A DNA stretch of 64,000 nt from Patescibacteria group bacterium (GTDB lineage Bacteria; Patescibacteriota; Patescibacteriia; 2-01-FULL-39-33): assembly GCA_041649575.1 (NCBI GenBank), contig JBAZMW010000001.1, positions 23,944-87,943 of the forward strand, in the 5' to 3' direction. Under the pieces are notes generated by a model, which saw only the letters and a list, made by a program, of their open reading frames with translations, was not told where the DNA came from and searched no databases. A program made the position numbers and the translations under genes. This document shows, piece by piece, positions 2,988 to 49,688 of this stretch. Within the stretch, counting starts at the first letter, position 1; each line of letters opens with the position of its first letter.

Positions 2988-3016
2988 TTGACACCCTTGA
3001 CTTTTTCCTGTATAAT
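2988..3016 (+). promoter_or_regulatory. consensus sigma70-type promoter upstream of uvrA
   Basis: TTGACA (2988-2993), a 17-nt spacer, then TATAAT (3011-3016). uvrA's ATG is at 3063. Confidence 0.5.
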
Positions 3017-3062: not shown

Positions 3063-5936
3063 ATGAAAGATAAGATTTCTATCCACGGAGCGCGAGTCAA
3101 TAATTTGAAGAATATTGATATTGATTTGCCCAAAAATAAATTAGTGGTGATCACCGGGCTCTCCGGCTCGGGCAAATCGTCTTTGGCTTTTGATACCGTT
3201 TATGCCGAAGGGCAGAGGCGTTATGCCGAGAGTTTATCCGCTTACGCCAAGCAATTTCTGGATTTGATGGACAAGCCGGACGTCGACAGCATTGAAGGCA
3301 TGTCGCCAACCGTTGCCATTGATCAAAAATCGTCTTCCGCCAATCCGCGTTCCACGGTGGGGACAATCACGGAAATCTATGATTATTTGAGGTTGCTTTA
3401 TGCCAAAGTGGGAGTTGTCCATTGCCATTTGTGCGGCCAGGAGGTGAAAAAACAAACCCCCGATCAGATTTTGGAACAGCTTCTAAAATTACCGGCTGAT
3501 TCAAGGGTTCAGATTTTGGCGCCGGTGGTCTTTAATAAGAAAGGCACGCACACCAAACAAATCGAAGCCATCGCCAAAGCCAATTACGAATTGTTGCGTA
3601 TTGATGGTCATTTTTACAATATTGACGAGGCCAAGCAATTGAACTTGGACAAAAATTTCAGTCATACCATCGAAGTTTTGATCGACAGTTTAAGTTTGAC
3701 CAGCGGTATCAGCAGTCGCGACAAAGAAGACGTTGACTGGCAGCGTCTAAATAAAGCCATCATGCTGGCCCTGGATTATGGCAACGGTTTTATCAATGTT
3801 CATCTGCCGGAAAGCGACAAAGACTTGCCTTTCAATTTGTATTATGTTTGCCATCGTTGCGGCATTAGCATTGCCGAAGTGGAGCCGCGGAGTTTTTCTT
3901 TTAATTCGCCTTTTGGCGCCTGCCCGGCTTGCCGGGGGCTGGGTATAAAATTGGTGCCGGACAGGGATTTGATCATTCCCAACAAAAGACTGACTTTGGC
4001 CGAAGGCGCCATTAAGCCCTGGTCCAGAAATTTCGCCTCGCAAAATTCCAATTTTAAGTTGTTGGAAAAAGTAGCCCAGAAAAATAATTTCAGCCTGAAT
4101 TCTCCGGTAGCGGAATTACCCGACAGGGCGCTGGAGATTATTTTTAACGGCAGCGGTGACGAGGTCTATGAAGTCGACGGTCTGTCGAAGACCGAGGCGA
4201 GAAGAAAAATGGTTTTTGAAGGCGTGATAAAGTTTTTGGACAATAAATACAGTGAAACTAAATCGGAATATCTGCAAAAAACACTGGAAGACTACATGAG
4301 AATTTCCACTTGCCCGGTTTGTCATGGTACCAGATTAAAACCAGAAAGCCTGGCAGTCAAAGTGGTGGACAAAAACATCGCTCAAGTCAGCGGCTTGGAT
4401 GTTGATCGGTTGTTAGAATTTTTTAATGACCTGGAAAAGAAGTGGAAAGCGACTTCGCGCGAAGGAAAAATTTCCAAGCAGATTTTTAGGGAAATCACCA
4501 AAAAGTTGGGTTTTTTGAAAAACGTCGGACTAGACTATTTGACTTTAAGCCGCAGCGCTACCACCTTGGCCGGCGGCGAAGCCCAGCGCATAAAGCTGGC
4601 GACGCAAATCGGCTCGGGTTTGGAGGGAGTGGTTTATATTCTCGATGAGCCGTCAATTGGCCTGCACGCCAGGGACAATGGAAAATTAATCGACACTCTG
4701 AAGAAGTTGCGCGACAAAGGCAATTCGGTGATTGTGGTGGAACACGACGAGCAGATGATGCGGGCCGCGGATTATCTTATCGATATCGGACCGGGCGCGG
4801 GAATTTATGGCGGAGAGATTGTGGCCGAGGGTACTTTTGACCAAGTCAAAAAAAATAAAAAATCCATTACCGGCCAGTACTTGTCGGGAGTCAAAAGAGT
4901 GGAAATCAAAAAAGAATTGCATCAGGGCAATGGCAAAGCCATCAAAATTATCGGCGCCAGTGAGTTTAATCTGAAAAATATTGACGTCGAGATTCCGCTG
5001 GGCAAGCTGGTTTGCATCACCGGCGTCTCCGGCAGCGGCAAGTCGACTTTAATGACAGAAATTTTAGCCAAAGCTCTGGCTAATCGTTTTTACCGCACCA
5101 AGGATTTGCCGGGCAAACACAAGGAAATCAGAGGTTTGGATAATCTAGACAAGGTGATAGACATTGATCAGTCACCCATTGGCCGCACGCCACGCAGTAA
5201 TCCAGCCACGTACACGGGGGTGTTTACTTACGTCCGTGATTTGTACGCTAATTTACCGGAGAGCAAGGTGCGCGGCTTCAAGCAAGGCCATTTCAGTTTT
5301 AACGTTAAGGGCGGCGGTCGTTGCGAGACCTGTGCTGGTGACGGCTTGGTGAAAATCGAGATGCAATTTTTGCCAGATGTCTATGTGGAATGCGAGGAAT
5401 GTCATGGCAAGAGATATAACAAGCAGGCGCTGGAAATCCATTATCGGGGCCAGGACATCTCCGATGTTTTGCAAATGTCGGTGGCCGAAGCCAAAAAGTT
5501 TTTTACCCTTAATCAACAGATAGTCGACAAGCTGAATATCCTGGAAGAAGTTGGTTTGGGTTATTTAAAGCTGGGGCAAAGCGCCACCACACTCTCGGGC
5601 GGCGAAGCGCAAAGAGTGAAATTGGCTACCGAATTATCACGTCGTCCCACTGGCAGAACTTTATATATTCTCGACGAGCCGACCACCGGTTTGCATTTTG
5701 ATGATATAAAGAGATTATTGCAGGTGTTAAATTGCCTGGTGGAAAAAGGCAATTCGGTGTTGATCATAGAGCATAATTTAGATGTGATCAAATCCGCCGA
5801 CTGGATTATTGATTTGGGGCCGGAAGGCGGCAACCATGGCGGCGAAGTGGTGGCCGAGGGCACGCCCCAGGCGGTGGCCAAAATAAAAAATAGTTATACC
5901 GGCCAGTATTTGAAAAAAATTTTAAAACAAGCTTAA
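3063..5936 (+). CDS. uvrA: excinuclease ABC subunit A
   Basis: 957 aa with two ABC ATPase modules. Walker A '[14 protein letters not shown]' and '[10 protein letters not shown]' are present. The signature 'LSGGEAQR' occurs twice. Zinc-finger Cys clusters are present. Confidence 0.95.
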
Positions 5937-5940
5937 ATTA

Positions 5941-5967
5941 AAAAAATCCGCTCAACGCGGATTTTTT
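5941..5967. terminator. bidirectional terminator hairpin between uvrA (+) and the convergent minus-strand gene
   Basis: The sequence 'aaaaaatccgc tcaac gcggatttttt' has a stem flanked by an A-run and a T-run. Confidence 0.55.
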
Positions 5968-5981
5968 GAAAATCAATAGAT

Positions 5982-6989
5982 TTAGATTACACCGCAGGCG
6001 ATAACCGCTTCTCCCGGCAGGGCAACCGCCGAATCAGCATGGCCCAAAATCACGCAATCATTAGTGGCGAATAAAGTTTCCTTTAGTTCGCCAAAAACAT
6101 TATAAACCCTTGCCAAGACCTGCTTCTTTTTTACCACTTGCCCCGGCTTGACTATAAAACGGATAATGCCGGAAGTAGAGACAACCGGCTGGTGGGAGTA
6201 TTTTAAAATTTTATTTCTTAATTTTGGCGGTATGGAGAAGCCAAGGTTGTTGTCGGATTCCTTGCTCATACCCAATTCTTTTAGTAATTTGAAAATAGAC
6301 TTAACTCCCTCGGCGACGATTTTTTCGTCAATAGTGTAGGCGCCACCCAGCTCAATAGTCAGGGCCGGTATATTTTCTCTAATCAAGCTTCCAGAGAGAG
6401 TTTTTTTTAAAATTTTGTCTTCTTCCGGATCTTTGCCCTCATCAATAACCAAAAAACCAGTATGCAAGCTTAATTTTTTTGTTTTTTCGTAAGCTTCTCT
6501 ATACTTATTCCCCGGGTAGGGATCGATGATGGTGTAAGGGATCGACTGAAGCCAGTCGTTGTGCAGATCCAAAACCAAGTTGGGCTTGGTTTTTAAAATA
6601 GTGGTAAAAATTTTGTCGGTAATCCTTTCAACCAGAGAGCCATTTTTATCGCCGGGAAAAGAGCGGTTCAAGTCTTCTTGCACCACTCCCAGATTGCGAG
6701 AAACCATTTCAAAGCCCACCGGGTTCATTAAAGGAAAAGCAAAAAGAGATCCCCTGAGCAGCGGTCTGTTTTTTATTTTTTTGAAAACTTCCTGAATAAC
6801 AGCGATGCCGCCCACTTCGTCTCCATGAATGCAACCGGTAAGCCAGACAACCGGTCCGGGATTTTTGCTTTTGGCCGACATTAAAGCCAGGCGCCTGTAA
6901 GATAAATCGGAGCCAGTTAGTATTTTAATAAAAGAATGGTTTATTTTTTGCTTAGTTTTTTTCATAAGATTTGTCTTTAATAGTAGCAT
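5982..6989 (-). CDS. succinylglutamate desuccinylase / aspartoacylase (AstE/AspA, M14-like zinc hydrolase) family protein
   Basis: The sequence 'VWLTGCIHGDEVGGIAV' is the Zn-binding HxxE motif of the AstE_AspA family. Length is 335 aa. Confidence 0.6.
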   Translation of the reverse strand: MLLLKTNLMKKTKQKINHSFIKILTGSDLSYRRLALMSAKSKNPGPVVWLTGCIHGDEVGGIAVIQEVFKKIKNRPLLRGSLFAFPLMNPVGFEMVSRNLGVVQEDLNRSFPGDKNGSLVERITDKIFTTILKTKPNLVLDLHNDWLQSIPYTIIDPYPGNKYREAYEKTKKLSLHTGFLVIDEGKDPEEDKILKKTLSGSLIRENIPALTIELGGAYTIDEKIVAEGVKSIFKLLKELGMSKESDNNLGFSIPPKLRNKILKYSHQPVVSTSGIIRFIVKPGQVVKKKQVLARVYNVFGELKETLFATNDCVILGHADSAVALPGEAVIACGVI

Positions 6990-10384: not shown

Positions 10385-10416
10385 AAGTTTATAGTACAGG
10401 TTGGGTAAAGAGCTGG

Positions 10417-11472
10417 TCAGAACCGAAGCAGGAACTGAAGCTGGCCTTGATCTGGCGTCTTCGGCTCCAGCGACCAGTAGTAGCCGGCCTTGACTGACAC
10501 GATGTCCCGATAGAGGAAGACCTCTGCGGTGGCCCCGATGCTGGTGTCGGTTTTGTCCGGGCTGTTTCTGGCTACCTCGGCAGAAGTCACCTGGCCGTTC
10601 TTGCCGACGGAGGTCACGATTTCCGTCCAGTACTTGGGCAGCTGTCGGTTATACATCGCGATTCCAGACAGTTTGGCTTGGCCGTCAAACAGCTCGCGGC
10701 CAAGCAGTAGGTAGCCGCCGACTTGATTGCTGATGTGGTCGTCGCTGTAGTTGGAGCCGTCCACCTCTACGCGGCAGAACCAGGGCTTGGGTCGCCACTC
10801 GAGGAAGCCGCCAAGTTTCAGGAAGTCGTCGCAGACCTGTCCGGTGATGCCCAAGCAGCCTTGATCCAGTTTGCGTTTGAGCATGAATGACGACTCCAGG
10901 CGATCAAACAGCTTGGAGCTGTCGAAGGCCTCACCTGATCGGCCGGTGACATCCCATAGCGCGGTCCAGACATCGCTTTCCCAGCGTAGTTGGACACCAG
11001 GAGCGTAGCTGCTGAAGGGGATCGAGGCGGGAAAGAAGGGCAAGTCCCACTTGAATGGTCCGATGATGGGGTTGCCGAAGCCGCAGGCTAGCGTAAAAAG
11101 TCCGCCGCGTAGTTTCAGCCGGCCATCAAAGCCGATTGGCGTTTCCAGCCAGGCTTCGCGCAACCAATTGCCGCTGGTGTCTTCCTGCAAGTCGGCTAGC
11201 TCCAGTACCAGGCCGAAGGCCATCTGGCGGCCTTGGAGCTTGGTGTTGATGCGGGTCATCTGCCAAACAGCGTCGGTGGCGTTGTCTTGTAGTTTGATGA
11301 CCCCGCTAGTCCAGCCCCAGGTGGTCCAGGTCCAGTCGTCGTCCAGTTGAACGGGCGGAATCAGCCGGAGCTGTTCGGGCAGGTTCTGGGTTGGCGCTTT
11401 GGCGGCTTCCTCGGCCCAGACCGGTAGGGTTATTGTAACTGCCAAGATCGAAATCATTCTCACGTACTTCAT
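10417..11472 (-). CDS. secreted aromatic-rich beta-barrel/OMP-like protein of foreign (GC-rich) composition
   Basis: It has a signal peptide (MKYVRMISILAVTITLPVWAEEA). It is W/Y/G-rich and ends in '…LQFLLRF', a terminal Phe typical of an OMP beta-signal. The gene's GC is visibly far above flanking DNA. Confidence 0.5.
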   Translation of the reverse strand: MKYVRMISILAVTITLPVWAEEAAKAPTQNLPEQLRLIPPVQLDDDWTWTTWGWTSGVIKLQDNATDAVWQMTRINTKLQGRQMAFGLVLELADLQEDTSGNWLREAWLETPIGFDGRLKLRGGLFTLACGFGNPIIGPFKWDLPFFPASIPFSSYAPGVQLRWESDVWTALWDVTGRSGEAFDSSKLFDRLESSFMLKRKLDQGCLGITGQVCDDFLKLGGFLEWRPKPWFCRVEVDGSNYSDDHISNQVGGYLLLGRELFDGQAKLSGIAMYNRQLPKYWTEIVTSVGKNGQVTSAEVARNSPDKTDTSIGATAEVFLYRDIVSVKAGYYWSLEPKTPDQGQLQFLLRF

Positions 11473-12035
11473 GGCGCTTCTCCTTCTTTGGTTAAGGCTC
11501 GAGCTATAACTCTAACAACCCTCTGAGCCAGCATATATTCTGAGCAGCTAACCCAGAGGCTATCGGCAACGATGATGTTACTGCCATTTCCGACCAGCTG
11601 GAAGCTTAGTTGTATTCCTCCGTGCTGATATTGCGAGGTGCCAGTTATCAGCTTGGCATTCACTGGCAAGGTTGTACGGTTTTCCCAGAGATCATTGGCC
11701 TCTTTGTCGTTGAGGTAGGAGACTTCGGCGTTGGCCTCTCTCAACTGATTGATGATTGCTGTCTCGACAGCTTTCGCCGTCTCATGTTGCGGGTCGCTCT
11801 CATTGCTGGCTCGGATTACCACCAAGAACTGCTGACCCTTTAGAGCGGCGAGTTGGCGTTCTTCTATTCTGGCCTGCTGGCAGTGGGCTTCATACAGGCA
11901 GTAGGCCAAATACCCGATACCCACCACAGCCGCGCTGGCTAGGATAGCGCCCAGTGTCGCAGCACTACCTAGCAGCATCCATTTGTATTTCTGGTTCATG
12001 ATTCTGTCTCTCCCTCGGGTTTTCAAGGTTCGCAC
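11469..12035 (-). CDS. N-terminally membrane-anchored hypothetical protein (GC-rich island, 4-nt overlap with downstream ORF)
   Basis: The likely start is MNQKYKWMLLGSAATLGAILASAAVVGIGYLAY (TM anchor). No known domain. It shares the atypical composition of the neighbouring ORF. Confidence 0.45.
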   Translation of the reverse strand: MRTLKTRGRDRIMNQKYKWMLLGSAATLGAILASAAVVGIGYLAYCLYEAHCQQARIEERQLAALKGQQFLVVIRASNESDPQHETAKAVETAIINQLREANAEVSYLNDKEANDLWENRTTLPVNAKLITGTSQYQHGGIQLSFQLVGNGSNIIVADSLWVSCSEYMLAQRVVRVIARALTKEGEAP

Positions 12036-12105
12036 CCTAGTTGTCTTTCCGAGACAAGTTTACCGCCATGGTAAACGGCTAATTCTAACAAGGCGATAAA
12101 AAACT

Positions 12106-42447: not shown

Positions 42448-42539
42448 GGAGAGATGGCTGAGTGGCTGAAAGCGGCGGTTTGCTAAACCGTTATACGTCC
42501 TTTTCGGGCGTATCGAGGGTTCGAATCCCTCTCTCTCCG
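42448..42539 (+). tRNA. tRNA-Ser (anticodon GCU)
   Basis: Acceptor GGAGAGA/TCTCTCC, anticodon loop TTGCTAA, long variable arm, T-loop GTTCGAATC. It folds as a canonical cloverleaf. Confidence 0.85.
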
Positions 42540-42540
42540 T

Positions 42541-42578
42541 ATCAGGAATTTAGCCATAATTATGGCTAAATTCCTGAT
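42541..42578. other. perfect 17-bp-stem hairpin immediately 3' of tRNA-Ser
   Basis: 'caggaatttagccataa tta ttatggctaaattcctg' is a perfect palindrome. It is a terminator or processing element. Confidence 0.5.
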
Positions 42579-42776
42579 AAAGAAAGTGAAGGGATGAGAA
42601 GGGCAGTAATGAGCCAAGTCCCGACTTTAGTCGGGGCGCAGGCGAGATGCCGACAATTCCGAGCTGGTGCAGGAATTGTCGCTGCCCAGGCCGCGAATCC
42701 CTCTCTCTCCGCCTTCGCCCGGCCAAAGCGGGCTTCGGCGGACAAGTCCGCAAAAAGCACCTAATTTAAATCATAG

Positions 42777-43514: not shown

Positions 43515-45569
43515 ATGACTGGTTTAGAAACAAAAGTTAACCAACTCTCGGGCATTGGCAAGACCATTAGCCTAAGATTGAAAAGATTAGGAATTGAGAC
43601 CATTGGCGATCTCATTTTTTATTATCCCTTTCGTTATGATGACTTCAGCCAGCTGACAACCATTGACCAGCTAAAAAGCGGTTCGGTGACAACGGTTAAG
43701 GTAAGAATGGAGTTGCTTGCCAATCGTCGGACATTTAGAAAAAAGAAAATAATTACCGAAGGCGTAGCCAGCGACAGCACCGGTTCGATAAAAGTTATTT
43801 GGTTCAATCAACCCTGGATAGCCAAAAATATCAAAGTGGGCGAAGAGATTTATCTCTCCGGCAAAGTGGCCGGCAACCTGTTTGATATTTATCTCAATTC
43901 GCCACTTTATGAAAGAGCTGCTGCGGCCAACCTTAATACCGCCAGATTGGTGCCAATTTATTCGATCACCGAAGGAGTTTCGCAAAAGCAGTTGAGGGCT
44001 TTGGTAAAAATAGCTTTGAATTTTGTGGGGAATGTTTCAGATTTTTTGCCCGAAAAAATAGTCAAACAAGAAAGGCTATTAAGCCTGCCGCTGGCTTTGA
44101 AACAAATTCATTTCCCGGAAAACCACAAAAAACTAGCGGCGGCCAGAACCAGACTAGCCTTTGAGGAGTTATTCTTATTGCAGCTTTGGTCGCAACTGAT
44201 AAAGAAAGAGCTGGATCAGAAGACTTCCTGGCCGGTGGTTTTTCAGCGGGAAAAAATAAAGGAATTTATTGACGGTCTGGATTTTAAACTGACGACAGAC
44301 CAAAAAAAAGCTGCTTGGGAAATCATCCAGGACTTGGAGAAGAAGCGGCCGATGAATCGTCTGTTAGAAGGCGATGTCGGTTCGGGCAAGACGCTGGTAG
44401 CGGCTCTGGCCATCTTTAACACTGCTTTAAACGGCTATCAGAGCGTCTTATTGGCGCCGACAGAGATTCTGGCCCGGCAGCATTTTCAGACTTTTGATAA
44501 ATTATTTAAAAATAAAGATTTGAAAATCGGTTTATTAACCAGGAGTAATAAACTAATAAACCAAGAAGAAGTCGGTAAAAAGGAATTTTTGGCTCGTTGC
44601 CGGGCAGGAAAAATACAGATTATTATTGGGACGCACGCGGTTATCCAAAAAGAAGTGGCTTTTGCGAAGCTGGCTTTGGCAGTGATTGACGAGCAGCACC
44701 GCTTTGGTGTTGATCAGCGTCAGATTTTGAAAAAGCAGTCGGAGAAAACTCCGCATTTTTTGTCGCTGTCGGCCACCCCTATTCCGCGTTCCTTGGCTTT
44801 GATAATTTATGGCAGTCTGGATTTATCAATCATTAAACAGCTGCCGCCAGGCCGCCGGCCGGTAATTACCAAGGTAGTGGCTCCAGAAAACAGACAGTTG
44901 GCCTATGAATTTATCAGCAAAAAAATAACAGAGGGCCGGCAGGTGATGGTGATTTGTCCGTTGATTGATCCTTCAGATAAACTAGGAGTGCGTTCGGTGA
45001 CGGAAGAATTTAAAAAGCTGGACCAGGAGGTTTTTCCTCATTTACCAGTAGGGTTGTTGCACGGCAGACTGAAAGCCAGCAATAAAGAAAAGGTGATGGC
45101 CGAATTCGTGGCCGATAAAATAAAAATTCTAGTAGCCACCTCGGTAGTGGAGGTGGGAGTGGACGTGCCCAATGCCACAGTGATAATGATTGAGGGGGCA
45201 GAACGTTTTGGTCTGGCCCAGTTACATCAGTTTCGGGGACGAGTGGGGCGTGGCCGAGAACAGTCCTATTGTTTTCTTTTCAGTGCTAGCCCGGACCAAG
45301 AAACGGCCAAAAGGTTGTCGGCAGTGACGGCAACCAGTGACGGTTTTATACTGGCACAAAAAGATTTGCAACTAAGAGGCGCCGGTCAGATCTATGGCTA
45401 TCGGCAGTCTGGTTTTGACGAGCTTAAAATCGCCAATCTTGATGATTTGCCTTTAATAAAAAAAGCCCGTTTCTGGGCAGAAAAGATAATCAACGATGAC
45501 TGTTTAGATAAATACCCTTTGCTGCTTGAAAAAATCGAAGCCTTGGGGCTCACCAGTCATTTAGAATAA
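43515..45569 (+). CDS. recG: ATP-dependent DNA helicase RecG
   Basis: Wedge/OB N-domain and the helicase motifs 'GDVGSGKT', 'VIDEQHRFGV', 'SATPIPRS' and 'QLHQFRGRVGRG'. Length is 684 aa. Confidence 0.9.
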   Translation: MTGLETKVNQLSGIGKTISLRLKRLGIETIGDLIFYYPFRYDDFSQLTTIDQLKSGSVTTVKVRMELLANRRTFRKKKIITEGVASDSTGSIKVIWFNQPWIAKNIKVGEEIYLSGKVAGNLFDIYLNSPLYERAAAANLNTARLVPIYSITEGVSQKQLRALVKIALNFVGNVSDFLPEKIVKQERLLSLPLALKQIHFPENHKKLAAARTRLAFEELFLLQLWSQLIKKELDQKTSWPVVFQREKIKEFIDGLDFKLTTDQKKAAWEIIQDLEKKRPMNRLLEGDVGSGKTLVAALAIFNTALNGYQSVLLAPTEILARQHFQTFDKLFKNKDLKIGLLTRSNKLINQEEVGKKEFLARCRAGKIQIIIGTHAVIQKEVAFAKLALAVIDEQHRFGVDQRQILKKQSEKTPHFLSLSATPIPRSLALIIYGSLDLSIIKQLPPGRRPVITKVVAPENRQLAYEFISKKITEGRQVMVICPLIDPSDKLGVRSVTEEFKKLDQEVFPHLPVGLLHGRLKASNKEKVMAEFVADKIKILVATSVVEVGVDVPNATVIMIEGAERFGLAQLHQFRGRVGRGREQSYCFLFSASPDQETAKRLSAVTATSDGFILAQKDLQLRGAGQIYGYRQSGFDELKIANLDDLPLIKKARFWAEKIINDDCLDKYPLLLEKIEALGLTSHLE

Positions 45570-45584
45570 AAAAATAATCAATTA

Positions 45585-45614
45585 TTGACAAAAAATAAAC
45601 AGGGGAGTTATAAT
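45585..45614 (+). promoter_or_regulatory. consensus sigma70 promoter (TTGACA-17-TATAAT)
   Basis: TTGACA at 45585-90, a 17-nt spacer, TATAAT at 45609-14, located 16 nt after the recG stop. Confidence 0.5.
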
Positions 45615-45725
45615 AAAATCACTCGTTCTTTCGATGATTGCCTGGCGAAAGGAGGTCAACCGGCTTTAAAGGCGATTTGTGAAAGAATAACGGTAGGGTT
45701 CATACAACAGGAGGAGAATGGTGGC

Positions 45726-45938
45726 ATGGAGACACGGGTGGTAAAAGCGGTGGAGCTGGCAACAGCAACGGCGGTGGTTTGCTCTGTTCGGGGCTGCGAG
45801 AATCGGCTCAACAGAGACAGGGCTGAACTCCTGCAGAGGCATGGGCTGAATTTGACCTGTGTACACTGCCAGGAGAAGATAGAGGCCGGCGCCTCGCACT
45901 TCTTCCAGGGCGGCGAGATCGTCCTCGCGCGGACATAG
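45726..45938 (+). CDS. small GC-rich ORF encoding a putative zinc-ribbon protein (70 aa)
   Basis: 'METRVVKAVELATATAVVCSVRGCENRLNRDRAELLQRHGLNLTCVHCQEKIEAG…' carries a CxxxxC…CxxC arrangement. It is preceded by AGGAGG and has GC-rich codon usage unlike host genes. Confidence 0.3.
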   Translation: METRVVKAVELATATAVVCSVRGCENRLNRDRAELLQRHGLNLTCVHCQEKIEAGASHFFQGGEIVLART

Positions 45939-45962
45939 AGGATGGTCGAAAAGCATGCTCGT

Positions 45963-46004
45963 GACGGCTGTCGGACCGGCAAGGTTCGCGGCCGTCGTTT
46001 TTTT
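45963..46004 (+). terminator. intrinsic terminator
   Basis: 'gacggc…gccgtc' stem followed by 'gtttttttgtttt'. Confidence 0.5.
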
Positions 46005-46014
46005 GTTTTATCTC

Positions 46015-46042
46015 TTGACAGCAATCAGAAAATTGTTATAAT
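46015..46042 (+). promoter_or_regulatory. near-consensus sigma70 promoter (TTGACA-16-TATAAT)
   Basis: TTGACA at 46015-20 and TATAAT at 46037-42. Confidence 0.45.
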
Positions 46043-46130
46043 TCATCTTAAGTAGACAGTTGTTCCTTGGTCTGGTTCCTTTGGGGGAGCCAGTTGGCTG
46101 CGAGTTCAAATAGGATAGGAGTACATTGAG

Positions 46131-46292
46131 ATGAAGATGAGGCTGACACCGCCAGATAAGGAAATTATGGAGATACTGGCGGCCCACAAGGGCGGCCATA
46201 TCACGGTGACGGAGGCAAGCCAGATGCTGAAGACGAAAGTAGGCTTGCCGGCGTCCTCACGAGAGAAGGAGCACCAGGCTCTGTGCAACTAG
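46131..46292 (+). CDS. small GC-rich ORF (53 aa) with putative helix-turn-helix
   Basis: The protein is 'MKMRLTPPDKEIMEILAAHKGGHITVTEASQMLKTKVGLPASSREKEHQALCN'. The 'ILAAHKGGHITVTEASQML' stretch resembles an HTH. AGGAG lies 8 nt upstream. It is below the ORF-track size cutoff. Confidence 0.3.
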   Translation: MKMRLTPPDKEIMEILAAHKGGHITVTEASQMLKTKVGLPASSREKEHQALCN

Positions 46293-46352
46293 AGCCCTAC
46301 TAGCGAGCCAGCGAGCGTCCCCAGGTTAGGAACGAGGTCTTCTGATGCGATG

Positions 46353-47705
46353 TTATTGCGTTGGAAGCCTCTTTTTTTTGCCGATAATTTTAACAAGCTC
46401 TCTGATATCACTAATAGAAACAACCCTTGTTTTATTAGTAGCAGCACCCTTGTTTGGCGGGGAGACGATTTTCTCGAAGTTAAGCTTGAGGGCTTCAGAG
46501 ATAATTTTTTCCATTTGCGGTACCGATCGAATTTCGCCGGCCAGGCCCAGCTCGCCAAAAATCAAGAGCCCAGGGCTAACAGGCAGTTCTAAAAAGGCAG
46601 AAATTATAGCGGTAGCAACCGCTAAATCCACACCAGGGTCTTTTATTTTCAAACCGCCGGCAATATTTAGGTAAATATCCTGGTTATTAAGGTTGAGTTT
46701 GGCTATTTTGGAAATCACGGCAATAATTAACTGCAGACGATTAAGATCAAAGCCGGCAGCTTTTCTTTGGGGATAGCCAAAAACAGTTTTGGTGACCAGC
46801 GCCTGCACCTCTAGAAAAAACGGCCGTTGACCTTCTATCACTGCGGTGACAACCGCACCAGTGGCCGGATAATTTTCTTTTTCCAAAAATACTTGTGAGG
46901 GATTGCTGACTTCTTTCAGGCCAAGGTCGGTCATTTCAAAAACGCCTATTTCTCCAGTGGAGCCAAAGCGATTTTTACTGCTGCACAAAATTTTATAAAA
47001 ATTTTGGTTGTCATTTTCCAAATACAGGACGGTATCGACCAGGTGTTCCAAGCTCTTAGGTCCGGCGACCAGCCCTTCTTTGGTGACGTGGCCGATAATG
47101 ATGATAGGGATGCCAGATTTTTTGGCCACTTCCAGCAGCTGACTGGTAATGGAGATAATTTGCGCGGCCGAGCCCAGATTAGAGGCGGGATCATGAAAAC
47201 GCATAGTCTGGATAGAATCAACAATAGCCAGTTCCGGCTTGACTTCTTCGATGGTGGCGATGATTTTACCGATGTCGGTCTGGGCCAAAAAACGCAGATT
47301 ATTAAGATCCAGGTTGATTCTTTGGGCTCGAATCTTTACTTGATTGCCGGACTCCTCGCCGGAGACATAAAGAACATTTTTTAATTTATCGGAGATTTGC
47401 AGGCAGAGGGTCGATTTGCCAACGCCCGGATCGCCGCCGATCAAGATCAGAGACCCCTTGACTATGCCGCCTCCTAAAACCCGGTCCAACTCTTGAATTT
47501 TAGTAGAGAGTCTGGCCTGACTGATGTCGGGCAATTGCTTCAGATCTATTGGTTGGTCAGGCGCGGTTTTGGGCGTTTTTTTATCGTTGTTTTCAACGGC
47601 TTGCTCCTGAATGGTTCCCCAAGAGCCGCATTCCAAACAGCGCCCTTGCCACTTGGGATATTGGGCGCCGCATTTGAGGCAGGAATAAATTAAGCTATGG
47701 GCCAT
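46353..47705 (-). CDS. radA: DNA repair protein RadA/Sms
   Basis: N-terminal C4 zinc finger 'CLKCGAQYPKWQGRCLECGSW', RecA-like Walker A 'GGDPGVGKSTL', 'KNRFG' and a Lon-protease-like C-terminal domain. Confidence 0.9.
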   Translation of the reverse strand: MAHSLIYSCLKCGAQYPKWQGRCLECGSWGTIQEQAVENNDKKTPKTAPDQPIDLKQLPDISQARLSTKIQELDRVLGGGIVKGSLILIGGDPGVGKSTLCLQISDKLKNVLYVSGEESGNQVKIRAQRINLDLNNLRFLAQTDIGKIIATIEEVKPELAIVDSIQTMRFHDPASNLGSAAQIISITSQLLEVAKKSGIPIIIIGHVTKEGLVAGPKSLEHLVDTVLYLENDNQNFYKILCSSKNRFGSTGEIGVFEMTDLGLKEVSNPSQVFLEKENYPATGAVVTAVIEGQRPFFLEVQALVTKTVFGYPQRKAAGFDLNRLQLIIAVISKIAKLNLNNQDIYLNIAGGLKIKDPGVDLAVATAIISAFLELPVSPGLLIFGELGLAGEIRSVPQMEKIISEALKLNFEKIVSPPNKGAATNKTRVVSISDIRELVKIIGKKKRLPTQ

Positions 47706-47706
47706 A

Positions 47707-48492
47707 TTATTTTAGGTAACATTGGCAGGAGTAAGTATTAATGGTGTCTCCATTTTTTGGGGCGTGGGTGTAGACCAGGTTAGCGTATCTTTCAGAGCAC
47801 CAAGAGAAGCAGAGTTGATCGGCGGCCTCCTGACTGTTAGCTTTAATGTCGGTGGGGCCATTACGATAATTCAGAGTAGTCGCTTTGTCACGGCAAAAAC
47901 AGGACCATAAATTAGGACTACTGCCTTGCTCTACACGTTCAAACTCCTGGTTGTTGTTAGAACATTGGTTTTGGCATTGTTTTTCGGCTTCTTCTTTACT
48001 ACCGGTAGAAGCTAAGCCGACTGGCTGGGTGCTGGCAGTGGGGGTTGTAACACTGTCTAAATGCGGCATCGTTATCACTGTCAGCTTGGGATTGATCAAA
48101 TACAAAATAGTGAAAGACAAAAAAGCCAAGACCAGACCAATCAAGGCGGAGATAATAATCTCTTTGGCCTGTCCGATCTCGGAACTATTGCCTCGAGAAG
48201 CCAGCCACTTGAATCCGCCCCACATCACCATCACCGCCGCCAAGACTCCCACGGCGCCGATGATTAGACGATACCAAATATTAAAGTAAGTGCCCAAGAT
48301 GTTAGCATCGGTGACATTAAATTCTTTGGCCATATTGCCGAGAGGCACATTAAGGCAAACTTTTCCTGCTGGGCAAGAGCCGGCGGCTCCGGAGGCGGCT
48401 GCCGGAGTTTCTCCGGGGGTAGCTCCCAAAGCCAGAAGAGGAGCAGTAAAAAACAAGACAACCAAAAATAAGATTATTATATTTTTTTTCAT
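47707..48492 (-). CDS. secreted protein with TrbC/VirB2-pilin-like membrane module and Cys-rich C-terminal domain
   Basis: Signal peptide, then the module 'LIIGAVGVLAAVMVMWGGFKWLASRGNSSEIGQAKEIIISALIGLVLAFLSFTIL' (hydrophobic-WGG-basic-hydrophobic, pilin-like), then a C-terminal 8-Cys domain. Confidence 0.45.
   Translation of the reverse strand: MKKNIIILFLVVLFFTAPLLALGATPGETPAAASGAAGSCPAGKVCLNVPLGNMAKEFNVTDANILGTYFNIWYRLIIGAVGVLAAVMVMWGGFKWLASRGNSSEIGQAKEIIISALIGLVLAFLSFTILYLINPKLTVITMPHLDSVTTPTASTQPVGLASTGSKEEAEKQCQNQCSNNNQEFERVEQGSSPNLWSCFCRDKATTLNYRNGPTDIKANSQEAADQLCFSWCSERYANLVYTHAPKNGDTINTYSCQCYLK
48058..48269. repeat. 212-bp direct repeat copy A (~99 % identical to 49110-49321)
   Basis: Aligned by eye, there are 3 mismatches over 212 bp. 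It encodes the shared pilin-like TM module of the two adjacent paralogs. Confidence 0.8.
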
Positions 48493-48506: not shown

Positions 48507-49688
48507 TTAGAGACAGGACGTTTGCGCCCGATTAATGAACTGTTGTTCGCCATCGGCGCTTTCTAAAATATTGGCGTTACTGTTGATTCGGCTGGATACC
48601 CCCATACCCGGATCGGTTTTGAAAAAATTAAGGTAGTTGGTCCTCATATATTGGGCGGCTCCCGCTCGATCGCCAGCCCGGATTCTAGAAGCGGTTTCAC
48701 TTAAAAATACTGAATTAGGACCAAATTGATAAGCGGTGTCTGCTAAAACCGCTTTAGCCTGGGGATCAAGTCTCTCCCAGCCGTCGCCATAAGCGTTGGC
48801 CGCTCCCGGCCAATAGGTATTATTGTAATTATTCCAAAACCAATTTTTTTCCGTTTCATAATCGACAGAATTCGGCCTTTGGTCGCTATTATGCCCAAAG
48901 CCATAAGTATAGCCGTGCAGGTCGGCATAAGGAGTGCTGTTGTATCCCTCATAAGAAGCGGTAAAGGCATGATAATAATCAACGCCACCGGCGGTTTCTG
49001 AGCAAGGAACTTTGGCTTGGGAGTAATATGGCCCTGGCAGACCGTTTGGGTCGACAGATAAAGAGATGCCTCTGGGAACAAGGTTGGTATGAACAACCTG
49101 CACACTATCCAAATGCGGCATCGTTATCACTGTCAGCTTGGGATTGATCAAATACAAAATAGTGAAAGACAAAAAAGCCAAGACTAGACCAATCAAGGCG
49201 GAGATAATAATTTCTTTAGCCTGTCCGATCTCGGAACTATTGCCTCGAGAAGCCAGCCACTTGAATCCGCCCCACATCACCATCACCGCCGCCAAGACTC
49301 CCACGGCGCCGATGATTAGACTAAACCAAACAGCAAGGTAGTCTTCCAGGCCAGAGGCGGTAGTTTTGGAGCCAAGAGGCACATTAAGCTTAATACTGAT
49401 TGATCCTTTTGATTCTTCGGAATTAATTCCGACAGGGCCGCTGAATTGATCGAGAGTTTCTCCGGCGGCCAAGAAGGAGCGACAGCCTTGCTGGCAGGTT
49501 ATCAAGAGAGAATCGTTGGCCGCCCTGGCCAGGCCCTGATTTTCCCTGTTTCCATAATCCGTGTAACATTGGTTGACGCAGTCGGTGTATTTTGTTTTGT
49601 CGGCCAAAACATTTTTTGGCAACAAGCTGATGGCCAAGAGGATAATCGCAGGCAAAATTATTCTTAACAGTTGTCGTTTGGTGATCAT
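48507..49688 (-). CDS. secreted pilin-like-module protein fused to a GH24 (T4-lysozyme-like) peptidoglycan hydrolase domain
   Basis: It carries the same TM module as ORF 47707. The C-terminal domain 'YEGYNSTPYADLHGYTYGFGHNS…LDPQAKAVLADTAYQFGPNSVFLSETASRIRAGDRAGAAQYM' matches the phage-lysozyme pattern E-G-x…Y-x-D…T-x-G-x-GH and the A..D.AYN.G/…I..GDW..AA helix. Confidence 0.55.
   Translation of the reverse strand: MITKRQLLRIILPAIILLAISLLPKNVLADKTKYTDCVNQCYTDYGNRENQGLARAANDSLLITCQQGCRSFLAAGETLDQFSGPVGINSEESKGSISIKLNVPLGSKTTASGLEDYLAVWFSLIIGAVGVLAAVMVMWGGFKWLASRGNSSEIGQAKEIIISALIGLVLAFLSFTILYLINPKLTVITMPHLDSVQVVHTNLVPRGISLSVDPNGLPGPYYSQAKVPCSETAGGVDYYHAFTASYEGYNSTPYADLHGYTYGFGHNSDQRPNSVDYETEKNWFWNNYNNTYWPGAANAYGDGWERLDPQAKAVLADTAYQFGPNSVFLSETASRIRAGDRAGAAQYMRTNYLNFFKTDPGMGVSSRINSNANILESADGEQQFINRAQTSCL
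49110..49321. repeat. 212-bp direct repeat copy B
   Basis: See copy A. The spacing between copies is 1052 bp. Confidence 0.8.

Follow-up and report, generated by a model that had tools for sequence, protein, structure and literature searches.

The function of TraR depends on an N-terminal helix with the motif DxxDxA, a four-cysteine (C4) globular domain with the spacing CxxC-17-CxxC, and a C-terminal helix, and it is the DxxDxA tip of the N-terminal helix or coiled coil that reaches the active site of RNA polymerase (PMC9239242). A locus with a protein of related make-up is described here from a 64,000-nucleotide stretch (the window) of contig JBAZMW010000001.1, belonging to a Buchananbacteria-like Patescibacterium of the candidate phyla radiation (CPR), in which a compact island between the genes recG and radA holds two short open reading frames (ORFs), ORF1 and ORF2. 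The 70-residue product of ORF1 is similarly small to TraR of the F plasmid (73 aa) and its phage homologues, such as lambda Orf73, and shares with the TraR/DksA superfamily (PF01258, TIGR02419) the four-cysteine globular zinc domain, the pattern C-x3-[IL]-x3-R after the second cysteine, and C-[VL]-x-C-Q at the second knuckle; it is, moreover, positionally orthologous to bona fide DksA-like genes. Unlike TraR, ORF1 has 18 residues ahead of the first cysteine instead of 36, a CxxxxC first knuckle, an inter-knuckle loop of 20 residues instead of 17, and no DxxDxA; it is a chromosomal, syntenic CPR gene and not a plasmid or phage one, and it falls below every curated family threshold.

By comparison with the corresponding loci of relatives, the island is composed of two monocistronic, strongly promoted small protein genes in a conserved recG-radA neighbourhood. 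That both are real, conserved protein genes, with a TraR/DksA derivation for ORF1, is held here as probable and with good confidence, and what these comparisons add as new is a truncated TraR/DksA variant together with an orphan small-protein family.

Coding status and conservation of the two genes

ORF1 (45726..45938, forward strand) is of the C4 zinc-finger type, and ORF2 (46131..46292, forward strand) encodes 53 residues with three predicted helices and the motif I24-T25-x-x-E28. The loci of relatives were collected by RadA-anchored scans of GTDB species genomes and JGI metagenomes. The best RadA matches had 60-62% identity, all of them from Patescibacteria and mostly labelled Candidatus Buchananbacteria, and the metagenome scan gave no relative above 62%. 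The convergent arrangement of recG and radA, correctly recognised in an earlier sequence-only reading of this DNA, is kept in 17 Patescibacteria genome loci and further metagenome loci, with a gap of 0 to ~2.2 kb between the genes. Locus L010 has the architecture of the window, namely a promoter 12 nt after recG, a 71-aa CxxC...CxxC ORF and a terminator, after which, ~430 nt further on, come a second promoter, an ORF of 65 aa and its terminator. ORF1-like mini proteins are found in the gaps of L010, L001, L011 and L004 and ORF2-like proteins (44-69 aa) in those of L010, L012, L013 and L004, most of these genes having their own TTGACA/TATAAT promoter and terminator. Altogether, homologues lie at the orthologous site in at least ten genomes, with a patchy pattern of presence.

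Single-ORF jackhmmer searches gave no matches; the profiles were seeded from syntenic ORFs detected by eye and then validated by leaving one out. The hidden Markov models (HMMs) built from relatives only recovered ORF1 as the top hit among the ORFs of the window with an E-value of 1.6e-7 (next best 0.26), and ORF2 likewise with 1.4e-4 (next best 0.11). The proposed pair of coding frames was the best of nine in 5/5 pairwise comparisons of the units (chance ~1.7e-5), and the pairwise scores exceeded those of shuffles with p <= 0.0025 for the within-family pairs that include the window ORFs. The GC content at codon position 3 (GC3) is 0.73 in ORF1 and 0.755 in ORF2 versus 0.495 +/- 0.058 in the host, the excess being concentrated at this position of both proposed frames in the order GC3 > GC1 > GC2, and a CAI-like index of the island ORFs lies below 99.6% of host 70-codon chunks; the codon usage is, thus, unlike that of the host, as had been claimed. 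The leave-one-out HMMs, the pairwise scores, the frame test and the GC3 pattern together lead to the rejection of the view that the ORFs are fortuitous.

That view had been one of the candidate explanations of the sequence-only reading, by which the island would hold two structured non-coding RNAs with ORFs arising by accident. In its favour, each unit is framed by a strong promoter and a terminator, is richer in GC than the genome around it and has long untranslated regions (UTRs), and the folding z-scores of the full transcripts are -3.4 and -3.7, to which the terminators contribute. Without its terminator, unit 2 keeps a z of -3.6, and the coding sequence (CDS) of ORF2 taken alone has -4.05 versus a host CDS mean of -0.72 +/- 1.2; the 5'- and 3'UTRs of this unit are also predicted to form a duplex of -47 kcal/mol. 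However, unit 1 without its terminator is ordinary (z -1.9), and the searches for known RNAs were negative: over positions 45500-46450, Rfam 15 gave none at the gathering threshold and, even at E<=10, only five chance-level matches (best E 1.8), while ARAGORN found no tmRNA or tRNA in the island. In the whole window the Rfam 15 matches are three tRNAs only, and in the gaps of 13 relatives' loci there are none, the tRNAs found there lying elsewhere in the loci. The absence of RNase P, tmRNA and SRP RNA noticed earlier by inspection is, therefore, upheld by these Rfam and ARAGORN results, and no known RNA accounts for the island. What the relatives keep is the protein sequence, the cysteines, the Shine-Dalgarno (SD) sequences and the start codons, not the nucleotides or the long-range pairing; the similarity is confined to the proteins and to the proposed frames, and nhmmer with both transcripts against 80 radA-anchored loci found no DNA similarity. 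With the GC excess at codon position 3 added to this, the explanation by non-coding RNAs with accidental ORFs is hardly credible.

Relation of ORF1 to the TraR/DksA superfamily

The cysteines of ORF1 are arranged as C19-x4-C24 and C45-x2-C48, that is with the spacing C-x4-C-x20-C-x2-C, and those of its closest homologue, L010_1, as C-x2-C-x21-C-x2-C. The invariant positions in the alignment of the mini family are C19, C24, R32, C45, C48 and E53. The mini form, of 57-99 aa, is present in five genomes with its own consensus promoter, SD sequence and terminator, and in the more distant relatives L012, L013, L020, L100, L107 and L018 the same site is taken by longer proteins of 114-170 aa. Most of these longer syntenic proteins carry a coiled coil, two of them have DxxDxA (DPGDMA in L013 and DATDEA in L020), and those of L012, L013 and L020 exceed the Pfam threshold for zf-dskA_traR. 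An alignment by hhalign of the mini-family profile with the syntenic full-length DksA-like set gave 92% probability (E 6.5e-7), and the top PDB matches of this profile were TraR in complex with RNA polymerase (5w1s and 6n57, E 0.002), followed by YbiI (E 0.014). L010_1 itself matches the TraR model TIGR02419 (E 1.2e-6) and the 'DksA-like' phrog_54 (E 5.6e-7), remaining below the curated cutoffs with 29 bits versus 59.7 for TIGR02419 and 14 bits versus 24.9 for PF01258. By these alignments, ORF1 is a divergent and truncated derivative of the TraR/DksA superfamily in which only the globular domain is kept, with altered spacing, and it is probably not a functional equivalent of TraR or DksA.

The longer proteins at the same site in distant relatives, mostly with their coiled coil and, in two cases, DxxDxA, might also suggest that ORF1 is the remnant of a decaying full-length dksA, effectively a pseudogene, the more so that no stop codon interrupts the frame between the promoter and the ORF1 ATG, and gene callers give a 117-aa ORF here. 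However, the 47 upstream in-frame codons show no similarity to DksA coiled coils in hhalign comparison, which rules them out as a decayed coiled coil; the stretch from the predicted transcription start to the ATG at 45726 contains no start codon in frame; and the mini form recurs in five genomes with invariant cysteines and its own promoter, SD sequence and terminator. A remnant of this kind is improbable, and the reading of ORF1 as a functioning small gene of TraR/DksA descent is preferred.

Because ORF1 lacks DxxDxA and the long N-terminal helix, any mechanism at RNA polymerase is a guess. By analogy with TraR, its zinc domain might dock at the rim of the secondary channel of the polymerase, and the protein would then modulate or compete for the channel site without reaching the active centre. 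Such rim docking is the likeliest mechanism, and it is put forward tentatively, at rather less than an even chance.

ORF2 and its family

The ORF2 family shares I-T-x-x-E and a preceding amphipathic helix. An AlphaFold model from three sequences has three helices (pLDDT 70), for which Foldseek found no PDB match with E < 1, and ORF2 has no match in the Pfam, NCBIfam, PHROG or PADLOC families. The family profile has weak PDB matches to AM32, an excisionase-type helix-turn-helix (HTH) protein (E 0.07), and to YnzC (E 0.23), and L010_2 has a weak one, below the curated threshold, to the SHOCT-like PF22746 (E 0.0065). The short helical architecture and the motif G-x-I-T-x-x-E-A are thus what ORF2 has in common with SHOCT-like, excisionase-type HTH and YnzC-like proteins, whereas the matches to them are not significant and stay below every curated threshold. 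In contrast to an excisionase-type HTH, the short homologues L012_2 and L013_2 end 12-15 residues past ITxxE, before the putative recognition helix could form. ORF2 may be HTH-like, as proposed earlier, with three predicted helices and the ITxxEA motif, but it matches no HTH family, and the two shortest homologues have no putative recognition helix.

In L012, L013 and L004 the ORF2 homologue is divergent to a gene for 3-methyladenine DNA glycosylase, which is absent from the window. By its family alignment and its neighbours, ORF2 belongs to a small, lineage-restricted orphan family of helical proteins with ~50 residues, whose genes often stand beside DNA-repair genes. It may serve as a small regulator or adaptor.

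The glycosylase gene (MPG-like) is often present as a third gene between recG and radA, being located at 5598-6242 in L012, 2046-2708 in L013 and 5776-6309 in L004, and present also in L100, L094, L077 and L017. In L012 there is an overlap between the glycosylase start codon and the -35 hexamer that serves the ORF2 homologue. In a more distant lineage, the gap of L015 (the same as L097 and L098), at ~5317-6211, holds a promoter-driven unit of ~300 nt with 57% GC, whose content differs from the island of the window and has no Rfam match.

Points against the two-gene reading

Several observations weigh against the reading of the island as two conserved protein genes with a TraR/DksA ancestry for the first. 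ORF1 alone matches no Pfam, NCBIfam (E<=1-10) or PHROG model, so that its link to TraR/DksA is transitive, passing through four relatives and synteny. Besides the first knuckle and the loop length, which depart from those of TraR, the missing DxxDxA and long N-terminal helix count here: residues 1-18 (METRVVKAVELATATAVV) contain no Asp, and no DxxDxA precedes the first cysteine in L010_1, L001_1, L011_1 and L004_1. AlphaFold run on the ORF1 sequence by itself gave a low-quality model (pLDDT 58), from which no meaningful Foldseek match was obtained. The ORF2 family comprises no more than five proteins; further ones proposed by an exhaustive HMMER search of 1.84 billion proteins were EF-hand repeats sharing G-x-I-T-x-x-E and were judged to be noise, and when ORF1, ORF2 and the ORF2 alignment served as queries in word-indexed searches against 5.8 billion proteins, only the query proteins came back. 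There is no sequence close enough for measuring dN/dS. Finally, the gap is empty or nearly so in at least five relatives (L002, L003, L005, L007 and L008), as it is in several metagenome loci; a conserved gene in the relatives, which the sequence-only reading had set against its own proposal, is thus found as to the conservation but not as to its presence in all of them.

Organization and composition of the locus

The island begins directly after recG (43515..45569, forward strand) and consists of two promoter-ORF-terminator units on the forward strand, as first described from the letters alone. The promoter P1 (45585..45614) has TTGACA and TATAAT at 12/12 consensus positions, the perfect hexamers reported before, with a spacer that measures 18 nt and not 17. 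The 5'UTR of unit 1, ~105 nt long (45621..45725), has its start inferred from the -10 hexamer and carries the SD sequence GGAGGAG at 45710-45716 ahead of the ATG at 45726. Behind ORF1 stands the intrinsic terminator T1 (45963..46004), a GC-rich hairpin at 45963-45996 followed by a run of seven T. Promoter P2 (46015..46042) is likewise perfect at 12/12 consensus positions; its spacer measures 16 nt, in agreement with the earlier reading, and TATAAT is preceded by the TG of an extended -10 element. The ~82-nt 5'UTR of unit 2 (46049..46130) includes GTTCCTT at 46062-46068 and the SD sequence TAGGAG at 46116-46121, the ATG of ORF2 is at 46131, and the 3'UTR segment at 46293..46340 is predicted to pair with the 5'UTR of the same unit. 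The intrinsic terminator T2 (46334..46379), a hairpin with a run of eight T, lies on the strand opposite the last 9 codons of the convergent radA (46353..47705, reverse strand), so that the hairpin loop includes the stop codon of radA and the T-run coincides with its KKK codons; this overlap is an extreme convergent packing of genes.

Perfect TTGACA-N16-18-TATAAT promoters number 3 in the window versus 0.01 expected by chance, 2 of them being P1 and P2. The third (TTGACA-17-TATAAT, 2988-3016) drives uvrA (3063-5936).

The GC content of the island in 200-nt windows is 51-60.5%, versus 45% in the whole window. However, both 5'UTRs have only 47.6%, so that the ~700 bp are not GC-rich throughout, contrary to what had been stated before. 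In the public gene calls (ENA, Logan, JGI), ORF1 appears as a protein of 117 aa whose start is placed on the TTG of the -35 hexamer of P1, and ORF2 is annotated in only one of the three assemblies, that of JGI. These assemblies are 100% identical, leaving no polymorphism for dN/dS.

Leader elements and predicted pairing of the untranslated regions

The leader of unit 1 has the heptamer GTTCTTT at 45625-45631, of which the GTTCCTT in the leader of unit 2 is a variant. GTTCTTT or its close variants stand 7-22 nt after the -10 hexamer in 10/12 leaders of both families, and the exact form is in 7/12 leaders versus 0.003 expected (P ~1e-15). The element is absent from other strong promoters, for example that of uvrA, and 10/16 near-perfect promoters in all the Patescibacteria loci drive members of the ORF1 and ORF2 families. 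GTTCTTT may be an operator or an RNA element of the 5' end, and ORF2 could be co-regulated with ORF1 through this common leader element. A conserved 5'-leader hairpin, pairing UUCUUU with GAAAGGA, was considered as well and was unsupported by the folding of eight leaders. The uvrA leader, without GTTCTTT, contains TTGTTTTAAG; a comparison with the uvrA promoter, made only by eye and aimed at an SOS/LexA-type operator, showed no shared palindrome.

Further downstream in the ORF1 leader, the SD-like sequence GAAAGGAGG occupies positions 45647-45655, 71 nt upstream of the ATG; it is unique in the window and non-initiating, there being no start codon within 20 nt. This sequence is presumably identical to the 9-mer of the mRNA stabiliser STAB-SD. 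The leaders of L010_1, L001_1, L004_1 and L018_1 likewise carry a non-initiating AAGGAGG, at a distance of 30-105 nt ahead of the start codon; by chance, 0.007 such elements would be expected per 100 nt. The STAB-SD concept, as summarised in PMC12970973 with reference to Agaisse and Lereclus (1996), was developed for the cry3Aa mRNA of Bacillus thuringiensis, and the ORF1 leader resembles it in having in the 5'UTR a perfect SD-like sequence that is far from the start codon and does not initiate. It differs in that the host is a Patescibacterium and that GAAAGGAGG co-occurs with the 5'-proximal GTTCTTT, which has no known counterpart in cry3Aa. By this analogy, GAAAGGAGG probably acts as an mRNA stabiliser of the STAB-SD type.

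In unit 2, the predicted duplex joins 46068-46123 with 46293-46340 through ~30 base pairs (-47 kcal/mol, z -3.4), and 1/1000 shuffles scored better; its significance is moderate. Interactions between the 5'- and 3'UTR have precedents in the hbs mRNA of B. subtilis (PMC5737220) and in icaR of S. aureus (PMC3868564). The unit 2 transcript is like these mRNAs in being short and monocistronic, with a strong promoter and a predicted 5'/3'UTR pairing; unlike them, its pairing is a prediction only, of moderate significance, and it was not seen in the homologous units of L010 and L012.

These observations bear on the explanation that the transcripts are bifunctional, being the mRNAs of small proteins whose UTRs serve also as regulatory RNA elements, through protection of the 5' end or through a 5'/3'UTR circularisation that couples stability to translation. 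The conserved GTTCTTT and the non-initiating SD-like element in the leaders would be in line with it, together with the UTR duplex and unusually structured CDS of unit 2 and the hbs and icaR precedents (PMC5737220; PMC3868564), whereas no consistent leader hairpin is predicted across the genomes, neither L010 nor L012 shows the duplex in its homologous unit, and the z-score of the duplex is not extreme, being bettered by one shuffle in a thousand. Bifunctional transcripts are rather less likely than not.

The proposals of a foreign origin, mobility or addiction

Atypical GC and codon usage, and the gap that is empty in several relatives, may also point to an insertion between recG and radA, either mobile or acquired by horizontal transfer, which might be a selfish toxin-antitoxin (TA) pair; both a mobile-element remnant and an addiction module had been listed in the sequence-only reading. 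An imperfect 16-nt inverted repeat at the edges of the island (45580-45595 and 46374-46389), the only terminal repeat there, would suit such an insertion as well, but it is AT-rich and of low complexity, and its right arm lies inside the radA CDS. The raised GC3 is found in most orthologues too, even in much lower-GC genomes (L012_1 0.53 and L012_2 0.57 versus host 0.31; L100_1 0.51 versus host 0.27), and since it persists in genomes with a GC3 near 0.3, it is a property of the genes and not a mark of recent transfer. No second copy of the island was found within the window, no phage or plasmid DNA matches it, and there are no mobility genes in it. DksA/TraR-type genes occupy the same gap in metagenome-assembled genomes (MAGs) labelled Komeilibacteria and Doudnabacteria, and because they stand at the same site in such distant lineages, ancestral presence with losses is more parsimonious; the empty gaps in some close relatives (L002 and the others named above) fit ancestral presence followed by loss or relocation. 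The homologues in the same gap of many Patescibacteria, thus, speak against a mobile-element remnant.

As to the addiction pair, a terminator and a second promoter stand between ORF1 and ORF2, each of which is a transcription unit by itself, L001 and L011 have an ORF1-type gene but no ORF2, and the searches for TA and defence families gave no Pfam TA match and no PADLOC model below E 0.04, so that this proposal is not borne out. An acquired or mobile island, addictive or otherwise, is very improbable beside two resident protein genes.

Other features of the window

The GC-richest block of the window (53-59%) is at 10400-12040 and encodes a 351-aa signal-peptide protein, with a GC3 of 0.749 and no Pfam match, as well as a membrane protein of 188 aa; a foreign origin is more plausible for this block than for the recG-radA island. 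A perfect 36-nt palindrome (42543-42578) stands directly after tRNA-Ser(GCT) and is followed by ~130 nt with 58% GC, and the 3' end of this tRNA is directly repeated, as GAATCCCTCTCTCTCCG, at 42523-42539 and 42696-42712; the segment 42540-42770, which has no Rfam match, resembles an att-site duplication from an integrated element. A segment of 229 nt is duplicated with 97% identity (48050-48278 and 49102-49330) within two adjacent genes for T4SS-pilin-like proteins (PF18895) and encodes the same transmembrane segment in both.

Meaning of the locus for Patescibacteria

The genomes of CPR/Patescibacteria are tiny and have few recognisable regulators, and small proteins made from the strongest promoters are, therefore, likely to matter in these organisms. 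A more far-reaching proposal is a Patescibacteria-specific co-regulated pair, composed of a TraR-like protein without DxxDxA and of ORF2, and marked by GTTCTTT, by STAB-SD-like leaders and by raised GC3, which would act on RNA polymerase or on the processing of DNA repair and replication conflicts at recG-(glycosylase)-radA, with ORF1 as a new class of secondary-channel or rim binder. This proposal is speculative and, taken as a whole, unlikely; were it true, ORF1 would represent a new functional class of secondary-channel/rim binders that work short of the active site. Since ORF1 has lost the helix that reaches the active site and has kept its promoter, cysteines and position in several lineages, the globular domain alone would appear to be selectable, which bears on the evolution of the secondary-channel factors. 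The GTTCTTT leader motif gives a handle on a possible regulon in organisms that are unculturable. For the annotation of CPR genomes, the locus means that an 'intergenic' island which is GC-rich and flanked by promoters need not be a non-coding RNA or an insertion, and may instead consist of micro-genes that were overlooked or wrongly called.

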